DNA of 64,000 nucleotides, taken from assembly GCF_024502345.1 (NCBI RefSeq), contig NZ_JALDNN010000001.1; one strand, given 5' to 3'. The notes beneath the pieces are model-generated. The model was not told the DNA's origin, searched no databases, and worked only from the letters and a program-made list of their open reading frames with translations. The position numbers and the translations under genes were made by a program. The stretch's first letter is position 1. Each line of letters opens with the position of its first letter. Below are positions 1 to 42,608 of this stretch, piece after piece. Origin of the DNA: Escherichia coli. Lineage in GTDB: Bacteria > Pseudomonadota > Gammaproteobacteria > Enterobacterales > Enterobacteriaceae.

Positions 1-3000
1 ACAAGGAGCGGAATTTACATTATCACCAGAAAATGAAACTGGAATGACTCTGTTTGCCAATAACACCGTTTCAGGAGAATATAATAACGGCGGGGCAATA
101 TTTGCTAAAGAAAACTCAACGCTGAATCTTACGGATGTTATTTTTTCTGGTAACGTCGCAGGCGGCTATGGTGGCGCAATCTATTCTTCTGGTACTAACG
201 ATACCGGTGCCATCGATTTACGTGTCACTAACGCCGTGTTTCGCAATAACATCGCTAATGACGGCAAAGGTGGTGCAATTTATACCATCAATAATGATAT
301 CTATTTAAGTGATGATGTTTTTAACAATAACCAGGCATATACATCAACAAGTTACAGTGATGGCGATGGCGGCGCAATCGATGTCACAGATAATAATAGC
401 GACAGCAAGCATCCTTCAGGTTATACGATAATAAATAACACTGCCTTTACAAATAACACTGCCGAAGGTTATGGCGGGGCGATATATACCAATAGCGCGA
501 CGGCTCCCTATCTTATTGATATTTCTGTTGATGACAGCTACAGCCAGAACGGAGGCGTGTTAGTCGATGAGAACAATAGCGCAGCAGGCTATGGAGATGG
601 TCCTTCCTCTGCGGCGGGTGGCTTTATGTATCTCGGCTTAAGTGAAGTTACCTTTGATATTGCCGACGGAAAAACGCTGGTTATCGGCAATACAGAGAAT
701 GACGGAGCTGTTGACTCTATTGCTGGTACCGGGTTGATCACCAAAACAGGTTCCGGCGATCTGGTACTTAATGCAGATAACAATGACTTTACTGGTGAGA
801 TGCAGATTGAAAACGGTGAAGTTATTCTGGGCCGCAGCAACTCCCTGATGAATGTCGGAGATACTCATTGCCAGGACGATCCGCAAGACTGCTACGGTCT
901 GACGATAGGGAGTATTGATAAGTACCAGAATCAGGCAGAGCTAAACGTTGGCTCGACCCAACAAACTTTTGTGCACGCATTGACGGGCTTTCAGAATGGC
1001 ACTTTAAATATCGATGCTGGTGGCAACGTTACTGTTAATCAGGGCAGTTTTGCTGGCATCATCGAAGGTGCTGGTCAGCTCACCATTGCGCAAAACGGCA
1101 GCTACGTGCTGGCAGGGGCGCAGTCGATGGCGCTAACCGGCGATATAGTCGTTGATGATGGTGCGGTGCTTTTGCTGGAAGCCGACGCGGCAGATCTTAC
1201 CGCTCTCCAGGACGATCCGCAGTCGATCGTGTTAAACGGCGGTGTGCTCGATCTCTCTGATTTCTCCACCTGGCAGAGCGGCACATCATACAATGATGGC
1301 CTTGAAGTCAGTGGCAGCAGCGGAACGGTTATCGGCAGTCAGGATGTGGTAGATCTTGCAGGCGGAAACGATATGCATATCGGCGGCGACGGGAAAGATG
1401 GCGTCTACGTGGTGATCGATGCGGGTGACGGGCAGGTCAGCCTGGCAAATGACAATCAATACCTCGGCACAACGCAAATCGCTTCCGGTACGCTGATGGT
1501 GAGCGACAACTCGCAGCTTGGAGATACCCATTATAACCGCCAGGTTATCTTTACCGATAAGCCACAAGAAAGCGTGATGGAGATTACTGCCAATGTCGAT
1601 ACTCGCTCTACAACGACTGAGCATGGGCGTGATATTGAAATGCGCGCCGACGGTGAAGTGGCAGTTGATGCGGGGGTAGACACGCAGTGGGGCGCACTGA
1701 TGGCTGACAGCAGCGGGCAGCATCATGATGAGGGTAGCACATTGACGAAAACGGGGGCGGGTACGCTGGAGCTGACCGCCAGCGGTACAACGCAGTCGGC
1801 GGTACGTGTCGAAGAAGGCACCCTGAAAGGTGATGTTGCTGATATCCTTCCTTATGCTTCATCACTGTGGGTTGGTGACGGGGCAACGTTCGAGACTGGC
1901 GCGGATCAGGATATTCAGTCTATCGATGCTACTTCCAGCGGCACTATCGACATCAGCGATGGTACGGTTTTGCGCCTGACCGGGCAGGATACTTCCGTCG
2001 CCCTTGATGCCTCACTGTTTAACGGCGATGGGACGCTGGTAAATGCTACCGATGGCGTGACGTTGACAGGCGAGCTTAATACCAACCTTGAAACTGACAG
2101 CCTGACCTATCTTGCTGACGTGACGGTTAATGGTGATCTGACCAATACGTCCGGTGCGGTTAGCCTGCAAAATGGCGTCGCTGGCGATACGCTGACGGTA
2201 AACGGTGATTATACCGGCGGCGGTACGCTACTGTTCGACAGCGAATTAAACGGCGATGACTCGGTAAGCGATCAATTGGTGATGAACGGTAATACTGCTG
2301 GCAACACAACTGTGGTGGTTAACTCCATTACAGGGATTGGTGAGCCGACATCGACAGGCATTAAAGTGGTTGATTTCGCAGCTGATCCCACGCAGTTTCA
2401 AAACAATGCACAGTTCAGTCTGGCTGGCAGTGGCTACGTCAACATGGGAGCGTATGACTACACGCTAGTGGAAGATAACAACGACTGGTATCTGCGATCG
2501 CAAGAAGTAACGCCGCCATCGCCACCTGAGCCAGACCCGACTCCCGATCCTGATCCCACGCCGGATCCTGACCCAACCCCCGACCCGGCCCCTACGCCTG
2601 CTTACCAGCCGGTGCTGAATGCCAAAGTTGGCGGTTATCTCAATAACCTGCGGGCGGCAAATCAGGCGTTTATGATGGAGCGACGCGATCACGCTGGTAG
2701 CGATGGTCAGACGCTGAATTTACGTGTTATCGGCGGACGTTATCATTACACGGCGGCAGGGCAACTGGCTCAGCAGGAAGACACTTCTACGGTGCAGCTT
2801 AGCGGTGACCTGTTTAGCGGGCGCTGGGGCGATGATGGCGAGTGGATGCTTGGGATTGTAGGTGGCTACAGCGATAACCAGGGCGACAGCCGCTCGAGTA
2901 TGACCGGAACTCGCGCCGATAACCAGAACCACGGTTATGCCGTTGGGCTGACCTCAAGCTGGTATCAGCACGGTAATCAGAAGCAGGGGGCCTGGCTGGA

Positions 3001-3508
3001 TAGCTGGCTGCAATACGCGTGGTTTAACAATGATGTTTCCGAACAAGACGATGGCGTGGATCATTACCATTCGTCGGGGATTATCGCCTCGCTGGAAGCG
3101 GGGTATCAGTGGTTACCGGGGCGTGGTGTGGTGATTGAACCGCAGGCGCAGGTGATTTATCAGGGCGTGCAGCAGGATGATTTTACCGCCGCTAACCGTG
3201 CGCGCGTGTCACAATCGCAGGGTGATGATATTCAGACGCGGCTGGGTTTACACAGCGAATGGCGTACCGCTGTTCATGTCATACCAACATTAGATCTGAA
3301 TTATTATCACGATCCCCATTCGACGGAAATTGAAGAGGATGGCAGCACTATCAGTGACGATGCGGTGAAGCAATGGGGTGAAATAAAAGTGGGAGTCACG
3401 GGCAATATCAGTCAGCGAGTGTCCCTGCGCGGCAGCGTGGCGTGGCAGAAAGGGAGTGATGATTTTGCCCAGACGGCAGGGTTTTTGTCGATGACGGCGA
3501 AATGGTAA
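1..3508 (+). CDS. yfaL: AIDA-type autotransporter adhesin, 5' end outside window (open frame runs to position 2)
   Basis: Long ORF with repeated GGAIY passenger motifs, Pro-rich PDPTPDPDPT linker (about 2521-2590) and a C-terminal beta-barrel ending in W; position next to ubiG/gyrA as in K-12. Confidence 0.85.
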   Translation, partial: QGAEFTLSPENETGMTLFANNTVSGEYNNGGAIFAKENSTLNLTDVIFSGNVAGGYGGAIYSSGTNDTGAIDLRVTNAVFRNNIANDGKGGAIYTINNDIYLSDDVFNNNQAYTSTSYSDGDGGAIDVTDNNSDSKHPSGYTIINNTAFTNNTAEGYGGAIYTNSATAPYLIDISVDDSYSQNGGVLVDENNSAAGYGDGPSSAAGGFMYLGLSEVTFDIADGKTLVIGNTENDGAVDSIAGTGLITKTGSGDLVLNADNNDFTGEMQIENGEVILGRSNSLMNVGDTHCQDDPQDCYGLTIGSIDKYQNQAELNVGSTQQTFVHALTGFQNGTLNIDAGGNVTVNQGSFAGIIEGAGQLTIAQNGSYVLAGAQSMALTGDIVVDDGAVLLLEADAADLTALQDDPQSIVLNGGVLDLSDFSTWQSGTSYNDGLEVSGSSGTVIGSQDVVDLAGGNDMHIGGDGKDGVYVVIDAGDGQVSLANDNQYLGTTQIASGTLMVSDNSQLGDTHYNRQVIFTDKPQESVMEITANVDTRSTTTEHGRDIEMRADGEVAVDAGVDTQWGALMADSSGQHHDEGSTLTKTGAGTLELTASGTTQSAVRVEEGTLKGDVADILPYASSLWVGDGATFETGADQDIQSIDATSSGTIDISDGTVLRLTGQDTSVALDASLFNGDGTLVNATDGVTLTGELNTNLETDSLTYLADVTVNGDLTNTSGAVSLQNGVAGDTLTVNGDYTGGGTLLFDSELNGDDSVSDQLVMNGNTAGNTTVVVNSITGIGEPTSTGIKVVDFAADPTQFQNNAQFSLAGSGYVNMGAYDYTLVEDNNDWYLRSQEVTPPSPPEPDPTPDPDPTPDPDPTPDPAPTPAYQPVLNAKVGGYLNNLRAANQAFMMERRDHAGSDGQTLNLRVIGGRYHYTAAGQLAQQEDTSTVQLSGDLFSGRWGDDGEWMLGIVGGYSDNQGDSRSSMTGTRADNQNHGYAVGLTSSWYQHGNQKQGAWLDSWLQYAWFNNDVSEQDDGVDHYHSSGIIASLEAGYQWLPGRGVVIEPQAQVIYQGVQQDDFTAANRARVSQSQGDDIQTRLGLHSEWRTAVHVIPTLDLNYYHDPHSTEIEEDGSTISDDAVKQWGEIKVGVTGNISQRVSLRGSVAWQKGSDDFAQTAGFLSMTAKW

Positions 3509-40354: not shown

Positions 40355-40738
40355 ATGAGAACAACAATAAAAGGTTATGTCTGCTTTGCCACATTCTGAG
40401 AGTATGAGTTTTATTTGGTAGTCAATCAGTTACTTTATTGGTTTGCTTTCCGATGGAAGATAGATGTTTCCACAGAAGGGGCAAATTAACGTTATATTGT
40501 TTTTTATTCTCGACAGACTGTGCTTTGACTGGCGGGAGCAATGAGGACAAGTACTTTTCACATGGCGTAAAGTACGCATCTTGATATCTTTGAGTATCGA
40601 CATGTTGATTGTCCTGGTGGGCGGTTAACAACCATACACCACATGTTGGCTAATAGCTTCTTTTATAACCGTTACGATGTAGTCGTTAGCCATAATCAAT
40701 CAAGCCTCGCAATAGCGGGGCTTTTTAACAACTGAGGA

Positions 40739-40942: not shown

Positions 40943-40989
40943 CGAATCAACATAACTTTCCATCCGCCATGACACCACAATGCTCGTAG

Positions 40990-41110
40990 ACATGCCAGGA
41001 AGCCTGGCAGAAGAAGCTCGATACCATGCTGAACGCGCTGATGAAAACTACCGAGCAGGAATGACATGTGAGCGGATTTATGAGTCCGTAAAAATACTAA
41101 CAATGAACCG
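40990..41110 (+). pseudogene. remnant 3' end of a second Rz/Rz1 spanin gene
   Basis: Translates to ...[29 protein letters not shown]..., about 80 percent identical to the Rz C-terminus at 40000-40127; no upstream gene body. Confidence 0.6.
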
Positions 41111-41129
41111 TAGAGGAAAAATAATAGCT

Positions 41130-41514
41130 CTATAAATTAAGATGTTGACGGTTTTCGTGGATAAATTTGTGAATTTTTACTATGAAGGAAATACGACTCT
41201 TCCTTGAGTCAAAATCCCTGACAACTTAGGGTGATAGATAAAGGTCTTACGCAGCATGACATAATTTTCGATTTAAGCTATTTAAATTAATTTTTAAGAT
41301 CAAAACCCACTGAGATTTACTTACAAAACTAAACCTTGCTATGTCTGGTTAATCATGCGTTAATGAATGTCTGGTTTGTAACGAATTTATCTGAAGCAGT
41401 CGCTGTAATAATTTTATTCCTTGTTCCTGTTGAGATTTCCTTGTTAGCTTTTCTCTCTGATAAATTTTTTTCGGACCATTCTGCCCAAGGGCTTACTCAA
41501 TAAAGGTAATGTTT
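41130..41514 (+). promoter_or_regulatory. long AT-rich leader/promoter region upstream of the cold-shock gene
   Basis: About 380 bp AT-rich non-coding sequence before csp, as is typical of the long 5' UTRs of cspA-family genes. Confidence 0.35.
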
Positions 41515-41727
41515 ATGTCTAATAAAATGACTGGTTTAGTTAAATGGTTTAATCCTGAAAAAGGTTTTGGTTTTATCACTCCAAAAGATGGTAGTAAAGA
41601 TGTGTTTGTTCACTTCTCTGCTATCCAGAGTAATGATTTCAAGACGTTGAATGAGAATCAGGAAGTTGAATTTAGTGTTGAACAGGGACCTAAAGGCCCC
41701 ACGGCAGTTAATGTCGTGGCTGTATAA
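41515..41727 (+). CDS. cold-shock protein, CspA family (prophage-borne, CspB/CspI-like)
   Basis: [70 protein letters not shown] with RNP1/RNP2 motifs. Confidence 0.9.
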
Positions 41728-41931
41728 GGTAACTGTTATTACTAATAATATTCACTTCAGATGTCCGTGTTGCCACGGATCTCAGTACCGAACGTCAAAC
41801 TTTGATGTTACTGAAAAAAATCCTTTCGGAGCAAAATGTATTTTTTGCAAATCAACAATGATTACATTTGATAATATTGCACTGTACATTCGTTCTGGTC
41901 AGTCTTCGTTAGAATTCAGAAAATAAATTTC

Positions 41932-41953
41932 AGGCTCCTTATGGAGCCTTTTT
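41932..41953 (+). terminator. intrinsic terminator
   Basis: aggctcc-ttat-ggagcct hairpin followed by ttttt. Confidence 0.6.
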
Positions 41954-41999
41954 TGTATGCTGAACCGACAATCTCTGTAAGAGACATCACGGTAAAATT

Positions 42000-42230
42000 A
42001 TGAAAAAAGTCATCGTTTTTTTTAATGCAGAACCAGCAGTTGTTGTAACCGTAATGAAAGGTATTACTACGATAATGCGTGAGTTTCCCAATGGGGAAAA
42101 AGCACACCTACCCGTGATGTCAGCGGGATTTCCATCTCTGACAGGAGACCATAAAATAGTTTATGTAGCCTCTGATCGTGATGTCAGTTCAGAAGAGATC
42201 CTCGAGGCAGCCTCGAAGCTTTTGAAATGA
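42000..42230 (+). CDS. YmcE-like small protein (76 aa)
   Basis: 76-aa ORF immediately upstream of a gnsA/B-like gene, the same arrangement and size as ymcE-gnsA in K-12; identity not verified. Confidence 0.4.
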   Translation: MKKVIVFFNAEPAVVVTVMKGITTIMREFPNGEKAHLPVMSAGFPSLTGDHKIVYVASDRDVSSEEILEAASKLLK

Positions 42231-42434: not shown

Positions 42435-42608
42435 ATGAACGTCGAAGATTTAAAAAGAAAAACTGAAGCGGATATTTCTGAATTCATCACAAAAAAAATT
42501 ATTGAACTCAAAAAAAAGACAGGAAAAGAAGTTTCCGATATCCAGTTTAATGCTCGTGAAAAAATGACTGGGCTTGAAAGCTATGATATTAAAATCACAT
42601 TAATCTAA
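42435..42608 (+). CDS. GnsA/GnsB-family protein (57 aa; below the ORF-track size cutoff)
   Basis: Manual translation MNVEDLKRKTEADISEFITKKIIELKKKTGKEVSDIQFNAREKMTGLESYDIKITLI, close to remembered GnsA/GnsB sequences. Confidence 0.8.
   Translation: MNVEDLKRKTEADISEFITKKIIELKKKTGKEVSDIQFNAREKMTGLESYDIKITLI

Follow-up and report, generated by a model that had tools for sequence, protein, structure and literature searches.

Confirmed AUU start codons in Escherichia coli were limited, in a 2016 survey, to infC and pcnB (10.1101/063800). Initiation at AUU has been put at 1-2% of that at AUG (10.1101/063800) or at 6-8-fold below it (PMC3592434), and in vitro the cold is especially unfavourable to translation of AUU mRNAs (PMC5499595). 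At the UAA-GGU-AUU junction of infC, the classic AUU-start gene, reinitiation and de novo initiation contribute about equally (PMC3592434). The small gene ymcF, found beside cspA-family genes, is annotated with the same start codon; RefSeq and Pfam already record this gene together with the family, the name and the ATT start, all of which are known. Transcripts of ymcF and ymcE change together with cspG (PMC10920338), and ynfQ, entered as "Qin prophage, cold shock induced", changes in step with cspI and ynfN (PMC11228462). The name ynfQ carries two meanings: in RefSeq and in PMC11228462 it denotes the Qin-prophage paralogue of ymcF beside cspI, the sense used here, whilst in PMC6001520 it denotes an unrelated 37-aa membrane-like small open reading frame (sORF) between ydfJ and ydfK. 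In the searchable literature we found no paper dedicated to ymcF or ynfQ, no experimental support for the ATT start of either (N-terminal peptide or initiation-profiling peak), and no description of a conserved junction, tied to csp adjacency, in which a stop codon lies within the Shine-Dalgarno (SD) element of an AUU-initiated gene. Here we analyse a ymcF locus in a stretch of 64,000 nucleotides from an assembly assigned to E. coli (GCF_024502345.1, contig NZ_JALDNN010000001.1), referred to below as the window; all features lie on its + strand unless stated otherwise.

Results

The csp-ymcF cassette and its transcript

The first cistron of the cassette, csp (41515-41727), encodes a CspG/CspI-like cold-shock protein of 70 aa that scores 145.6 bits against the model NF007378 (CspG; cutoff 144) and matches the Pfam CSD family with E = 8e-33; its ATG at 41515 stands 8 nt after an AAGG. 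The sequence at 41370-41786 matches the cspA thermoregulator (Rfam RF01766), comprising the long cold-shock 5' UTR and the csp coding region, over model positions 1-428 of 428, with 142.8 bits (gathering score 78) and E = 2.3e-38. A terminator search of the region found five terminator-like sites where 0.7 would be expected, none of them between csp and ymcF. An intrinsic terminator at 41932-41955 follows ymcF, with a 7-bp GC-rich stem and TTAT loop at 41932-41949 (AGGCTCC-TTAT-GGAGCCT) and a run of T residues (TTTTT). The RF01766 match, the lack of a terminator between the two genes and the presence of one after ymcF together suggest that csp and ymcF form a bicistronic mRNA, predicted to be cold-inducible in the manner of cspA. 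Separately, a sub-threshold Rfam match to the Salmonella sRNA STnc220 (41884-41960, +; 43.2 bits, gathering score 60, E = 8e-6) extends over the 3' end of ymcF and the terminator, and the STnc220 entry may represent a 3'-end fragment of the homologous Salmonella csp-ymcF transcript.

The flanking genes are those of a lambdoid prophage, probably one of Citrobacter: a holin, an endolysin and an Rz-like spanin upstream and the small and large terminase subunits downstream, so that the cassette sits in the moron region that separates lysis genes from terminase genes. The cassette continues with a ynfN-like gene (42000-42230; phrog_3425, E = 7e-42) and a gnsB-like gene of the GnsA/GnsB family (42435-42608; PF08178, E = 5e-32), occupying the positions that ynfN and gnsB or gnsA hold in E. 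coli.

Several smaller features were observed alongside these. A 20-codon sORF (41941-42003, +; MEPFLYAEPTISVRDITVKL) has its first codon within the terminator loop downstream of ymcF and at its other end overlaps the ynfN-like gene, sharing an ATGA with the start codon at 42000. The sORF stands where E. coli has ynfR, a 21-aa, SPA-tag-validated, cold-shock-induced sORF between cspI and ynfN (PMC6001520), the 3' ends of the two being apparently in different frames, and it is doubtful that the sORF and ynfR are conserved as a protein. On the opposite strand, 40430-40603 (-) encodes a small prophage zinc-binding protein of 57 aa with the pattern CPHC...CPFC, which belongs to the YnfU family (NCBIfam, 76.4 bits against a cutoff of 36, together with a Pfam YnfU match), so that this moron region carries, with ymcF, two unrelated small Cys4 proteins. 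At 40980-41135 (+), a 51-aa ORF aligns with DUF2514 (Rz-like spanin) at the C-terminal end alone, over profile positions 124-160 of 161; apparently a second lysis gene once stood here, of which recombination between the lysis and csp cassettes has left this piece.

Identity and extent of the gene downstream of csp

The original prediction, made from the letters of the window, was of a possible zinc-ribbon ORF at 41651-41926 that overlaps csp and has no clean start codon. The ORF listing of the window contains this frame (91 aa, including FRCPCCHGSQYRTSNFDVTEKNPFGAKCIFCKSTM), which lies in the +1 frame relative to csp and begins within it. Once csp has ended (TAA, 41725-41727), a single in-frame ATG remains, at 41858-41860, equivalent to codon 41 of the gene described below, and between the two the sequence and ORF listing contain no in-frame ATG, GTG or TTG; the remaining in-frame ATGs of the ORF, at 41651 and 41711, are both inside csp. 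The listing, and the terminator-like hairpin that follows the frame, thus confirm an ORF without a clean start after csp.

Whilst the open frame is real, the gene proper is shorter, comprising 62 codons and a TAA at 41738-41926, clear of csp. Its product is well above chance expectation for an open frame. It matches the Pfam family PF23641 ("YmcF-like") with 126.6 bits, far over the curated cutoff of 27 (E = 4.2e-37), residues 2-62 aligning to profile positions 2-62 of 62, and the core of the gene shows dN/dS of about 0.1 across genera. All invariant residues of the family (C9, P10, C12, H13, G14, Q16, R18, S20, N28, P29, G31, F36 and M41) are kept, as are the nearly invariant C34 and C37, and the gene shares the family's position directly 3' of a cspA-family gene in one transcription unit, with a gap of 10 nt and no terminator before 41932. 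The best protein matches, at 95% identity, are Citrobacter proteins named 'cold shock small protein YmcF'; identity is 73-83% to E. coli copies and 95-100% to Citrobacter copies. At least 1000 contigs in a public collection encode exactly these 62 aa, beginning with M, and a 100%-identical protein occurs in a Citrobacter freundii metagenome-assembled genome and on several IMG/VR prophage contigs. A DNA search of complete E. coli genomes returned an 82%-identical locus carrying cspI, ymcF, ynfN and gnsB in that order (RefSeq), at which ymcF is annotated "cold shock small protein YmcF" (WP_071526745.1); the ymcF segment has matches in 4478 of 5426 E. coli genomes, with ymcF or, for prophage copies, ynfQ annotated among the matches listed. 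We therefore have high confidence, on the strength of these matches, that the window feature is an intact and already annotated small gene of the ymcF family, known as ynfQ in the Qin-prophage copy of E. coli.

Coverage of the family in other resources is thin. NCBIfam holds no YmcF-specific model and returned only a sub-threshold match to the ECs_2282 family (NF047912, putative zinc-binding), at 16.9 bits against a cutoff of 37. No PHROGs v4 family was matched, though the neighbouring ynfN-like (phrog_3425) and gnsB-like (phrog_2301) genes do have one, the likely reason being that ATT-initiated ORFs are not called in phage genomes. A profile search for distant relatives among 1.84 billion representatives gave 41 matches, many of them short fragments, with none at E below 1e-30 and no functional lead, indicating that the family is small.

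A decayed gene, in which the start codon has been lost and translation has ceased, had been offered as one explanation of the missing start, and the lack of any ATG, GTG or TTG from the csp stop to codon 41, together with the lack of a PHROGs family, would fit such a history. The pattern of substitution does not. Among 77 distinct core sequences of 41 codons each, drawn from 80 species-level genomes, variable columns are concentrated at third codon positions (40 of 41, against 19 of 41 at first and 15 of 41 at second positions), mean pN/pS is 0.116 and Jukes-Cantor-corrected dN/dS is 0.07, so that the ymcF core is under strong purifying selection, with dN/dS of about 0.07-0.12. The protein aligns to the family profile over its full length with every invariant residue in place, and ATT occupies the start position in 63 distinct loci from many genera, including the chromosomal copy of E. 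coli K-12; a dead gene would not hold AT(T/C) and the SD element invariant whilst the spacer between them drifts. Decay is thus barely conceivable, and the homology and conservation checks proposed with the prediction came out in favour of a gene, with homologues present and the frame conserved.

The start codon of ymcF

To locate the start codon we aligned 105 distinct loci by their FRCPCCHG motif and recorded, in each, the codon that lies six positions before it. This codon is ATT in 63 loci, ATG in 33 and ATC in five, the other four having N-terminal indels with an ATG nearby, and the neighbouring codons (-1 to -3 and 2 to 4) are free to vary. No ATG, GTG or TTG occurs anywhere in the upstream open frame in 25 of the 68 ATT/ATC loci, and 23 of these 25 have an in-frame stop within 10 codons upstream; in Kosakonia the csp TAA is itself in the ymcF frame, 4 codons before the start. 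In RefSeq, the E. coli ymcF coding sequence beside cspI begins at ATT, 10 nt past the cspI stop, and the K-12 chromosomal cspG-ymcF-ymcE-gnsA cluster has an identical 10-nt gap. In those 25 loci, then, ATT or ATC is found at the homologues' start position with no canonical alternative; the window itself does have an ATG 9 codons upstream. The start of the family profile, the RefSeq annotation, the 105-locus codon pattern and the conserved junction described below all point to the ATT at 41738-41740, 10 nt after the csp stop, as the start of ymcF, an assignment we consider very probably correct. The original suggestion of an unusual translation start was accordingly well founded, the position being ATT in the window and ATG or ATC in some other genera.

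The principal competing assignment is a canonical ATG inside csp, either 41711 (giving 71 aa) or 41651 (giving 91 aa), which would make the two genes truly overlapping in different frames. In its favour, no stop interrupts the frame from 41651 onwards, databases contain the exact 71-aa product (WP_224770504.1 and others, labelled 'cold-shock protein'), and versions of 70-72 aa are recorded from other genera. The ATG at 41711, however, is shared by the window and its close Citrobacter relatives and missing from E. coli K-12-type, Salmonella, Kosakonia and other loci, and it appears to be a by-product of csp encoding Asn-Val (AAT GTC) rather than a start, since in close relatives it is directly followed by an in-frame stop (ATG TCG TAG or ATG TCG TGA; L006, L009 and L098-L104 in our numbering of the loci). 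No SD-like motif was seen upstream of either ATG, the residues before ATT are unconserved and the family profile begins at ATT, and in stand-alone homologues the start ATG falls exactly at the ATT position. The segment 41651-41737 is thus best regarded as a chance-open upstream part of the ORF, non-coding for YmcF, that in many relatives carries in-frame stops at -4 to -10 codons. A start within csp is very unlikely on this evidence and was rejected, and the suggested overlap with csp was not borne out, close relatives having in-frame stops between the csp-internal ATG and the ATT. A minor longer isoform from ATG 41711 may nevertheless be made in the Citrobacter-like lineage. Some database records carry forms of YmcF of 70-72 aa that derive from fortuitous upstream ATGs.

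The csp-ymcF junction

At the junction (TAAGGT, 41725-41730), the csp stop codon TAA is nested in the ymcF SD element AAGG, with eight bases between G41729 and the start codon. An alignment of 18 diverse junctions shows an invariant T(A/G)AGG, an unconserved spacer of 7-8 nt and AT(T/C), after which conservation follows a codon pattern; no csp-adjacent locus departs from T(A/G)AGG.

Such an arrangement raises the possibility that YmcF is appended to the C terminus of Csp, either through a +1 frameshift or through readthrough of the stop, in a prfB-like manner. The ymcF frame is +1 relative to csp and is open across the junction in the window, and the prophage copies of E. coli end csp in CUU UGA (some reading CTT TGA GG), with that stop codon lying in an SD-like element, an arrangement reminiscent of the prfB shift site; in one genome, Citrobacter sedlakii NBRC 105722, csp and ymcF are genuinely fused in frame. 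The last sense codon of csp nevertheless varies (CTT, CTC, GTA, CGC or CAC), and in the window it is GTA, which is unable to slip +1. In Kosakonia the 9-nt gap puts the two genes in the same frame, where readthrough and not a shift would be needed, and in many loci in-frame stops separate the junction from the ATT (at -8 in L001 and at -7 in others). Stand-alone, ATG-initiated genes of 62 aa show, moreover, that the free small protein is the functional unit. With the slippery codon unconserved, the gap 9 or 10 nt by lineage and stand-alone genes in existence, the Csp-YmcF fusion was rejected as exceedingly improbable. In the C. sedlakii locus (L015, approximately 2940-3190), a deletion of the csp 3' end has joined csp and ymcF in a single frame without a stop, and the ymcF start position there is ATG, not ATT.

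Start codon usage and csp adjacency

The start codon was also compared with the presence of csp. Where a csp stop lies 9-10 nt upstream (72 distinct loci), the codon is ATT in 67, ATC in five and ATG in none, whereas loci without an adjacent csp have ATG in 36 of 41, typically with a stronger AGGAG, an association that is confounded by phylogeny, only a handful of independent lineages lacking csp. The ATG-start loci without adjacent csp are from Enterobacter and Leclercia, Klebsiella and Raoultella, and others. Five ATT loci lack an intact adjacent csp: three (L042, L058 and L073) have an ORF that ends at -13, and the other two (L050, Enterobacteriaceae bacterium UBA7338, and L070, Escherichia sp. 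ESNIH1; approximately 2975-3010) have a short upstream ORF, MKKG(Y/H)YYY, overlapping the ymcF start. This 8-codon uORF (MKKGYYYY or MKKGHYYY) contains the SD element and ends 5 nt into ymcF, and it possibly substitutes for csp in translational coupling. In Klebsiella and Raoultella (L034, L045 and L019; approximately 2960-3000), a remnant of the csp 3' end (..VVNVVAKRG*) precedes an ATG-start ymcF, which implies an ancestral csp-ymcF pair followed by csp loss and a change from ATT to ATG. The association of an AT(T/C) start with csp adjacency and a stop-in-SD junction may be new.

In our preferred reading, csp and ymcF are co-transcribed behind a cspA-type cold-shock 5' UTR, the transcript ending at the terminator at 41932, and translation of ymcF starts at ATT 41738, read as fMet, the AAGG that serves as its SD element sharing bases with the csp stop codon (TAAGG). 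Ribosomes finishing csp at that stop would then be re-used at the weak AUU and its 4-nt SD, and cold-shocked cells would make YmcF in a low, constant proportion to the massively translated Csp. That the ATT with its short SD is used mainly by, or tolerated only with, ribosomes terminating csp 10 nt upstream has, in our judgement, an even chance of being correct. The stronger proposal, that the ATT start is a selected device, kept only where csp or a substitute ORF terminates within the ymcF SD 9-10 nt upstream and giving way to ATG with a stronger SD where the gene is free-standing, is put forward tentatively and falls somewhat short of that.

Alternatively, the ATT may be served by ordinary de novo binding of 30S subunits at the AAGG SD, independently of csp translation, the ATT then being simply neutral or serving to lower expression, possibly with IF3 as its sensor, as happens in infC. 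An SD at suitable spacing is conserved, and there is no inhibitory hairpin to open: RNAalifold on 18 diverse loci found no conserved RNA hairpin masking the ymcF initiation region, only four invariant pairs within the coding region, and in a single-sequence fold (z = -2.1) the SD is largely unpaired, so that the classical unmasking form of coupling is unsupported. About half of expression at the infC-like junction is de novo (PMC3592434), and IF3 discrimination against AUU is established for infC (PMC5499595). Against this, a clearly free-standing initiation region with ATT or ATC was found in none of the 105 loci, every ATT locus having an ORF that terminates at or next to the SD, and estimates of de novo initiation at AUU lie between 1-2% and about 15% of the AUG level, with poorer performance in the cold (10.1101/063800, PMC3592434, PMC5499595). 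De novo initiation without coupling is a serious alternative for the mechanism, and one to which we give substantial weight while judging it clearly less probable than not. Poor AUU translation at low temperature sits uneasily with a role in cold shock, unless a low yield is what is wanted.

The YmcF protein

YmcF is a basic protein of 62 aa with four Cys residues in two knuckles, C9-P-C-C12 and C34-I-F-C37. An AF2 model built on a 65-sequence alignment (mean pLDDT 78) has short strands near both knuckles and a helix at 44-52. The predicted zinc ribbon is therefore plausible as a putative assignment, given the two CxxC knuckles and this model, but its structural backing is weak: a search of BFVD gave no significant structural relative, and the PDB contains no sequence relative. 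The type of fold, a net positive charge and the partner in the operon prompt a guess that YmcF serves, in the cold, as a zinc-ribbon adaptor with nucleic acid or the machinery of transcription or translation as its target. The nearly invariant additional Cys11 and the invariant His13 are not explained by a simple Cys4 zinc site.

The segment CPCCHGSQY (window 41762-41785, YmcF residues 9-16) recalls CPCHGSQY, the Rieske box II sequence in the cytochrome b6f iron-sulfur subunit. The resemblance is at motif level and is not significant (E = 0.02-0.7), and it is probably a coincidence; a Rieske [2Fe-2S] protein was considered and rejected, since box I (CxH) is missing and 62 aa is incompatible with the Rieske fold.

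Discussion

The immediate consequence of these results is for annotation. Standard ORF callers miss ATT-initiated genes, and several database records hold a spurious 71-aa form of YmcF that overlaps csp; recognising the ATT start gives the right ymcF product. The interest of the csp-ymcF pair beyond this lies in its stop-in-SD/AUU junction, which is strictly associated with csp adjacency. Should the ATT prove to be a selected device, ymcF/ynfQ would be a conserved case of natural AUU initiation in the enterobacteria, alongside infC and pcnB, with a UAAGG-AUU termination-reinitiation junction as in infC, and YmcF would be present at a small fixed ratio to Csp, or be IF3-responsive, in cold shock. 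A conserved AUU start in a cold-shock operon, correlated with a stop-in-SD junction, makes a simple natural test system, in which reinitiation could be set against IF3-controlled de novo initiation in the cold.

The closest known systems are E. coli YmcF (cspG-ymcF-ymcE-gnsA) and YnfQ of the Qin prophage (cspI-ynfQ-ynfN-gnsB), to which the window gene corresponds: each is a full-length PF23641 protein of 62 aa with the common motifs CPCCHGSQYR...GAKCIFCK, begins at ATT 10 nt after a cspA-family gene across a T(A/G)AGG stop/SD junction, and is followed by ynfN/ymcE-like and gnsA/B-like genes. The window lineage differs in its extra in-frame ATG, inside csp, 9 codons upstream. Small Cys4 zinc-ribbon proteins, such as the TFIIE-alpha zinc ribbon, YnfU and the ECs_2282 family, are further comparisons for the protein. 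For the junction, the nearest is infC, the classic AUU-start gene encoding IF3, in which a conserved AUU (or AUC) start likewise lies just past the stop of the preceding cistron (PMC3592434, PMC5499595) and that stop adjoins GG, the sequences being UAA GGU AUU in infC and UAA GGU AAC UGU U AUU in the window. The two differ in the distance from stop to start, which is 3 nt in infC and 10 nt in the window, and the proteins are unrelated. In infC, moreover, the AUU acts as the sensor for IF3 autoregulation, whereas no such loop is known for ymcF.
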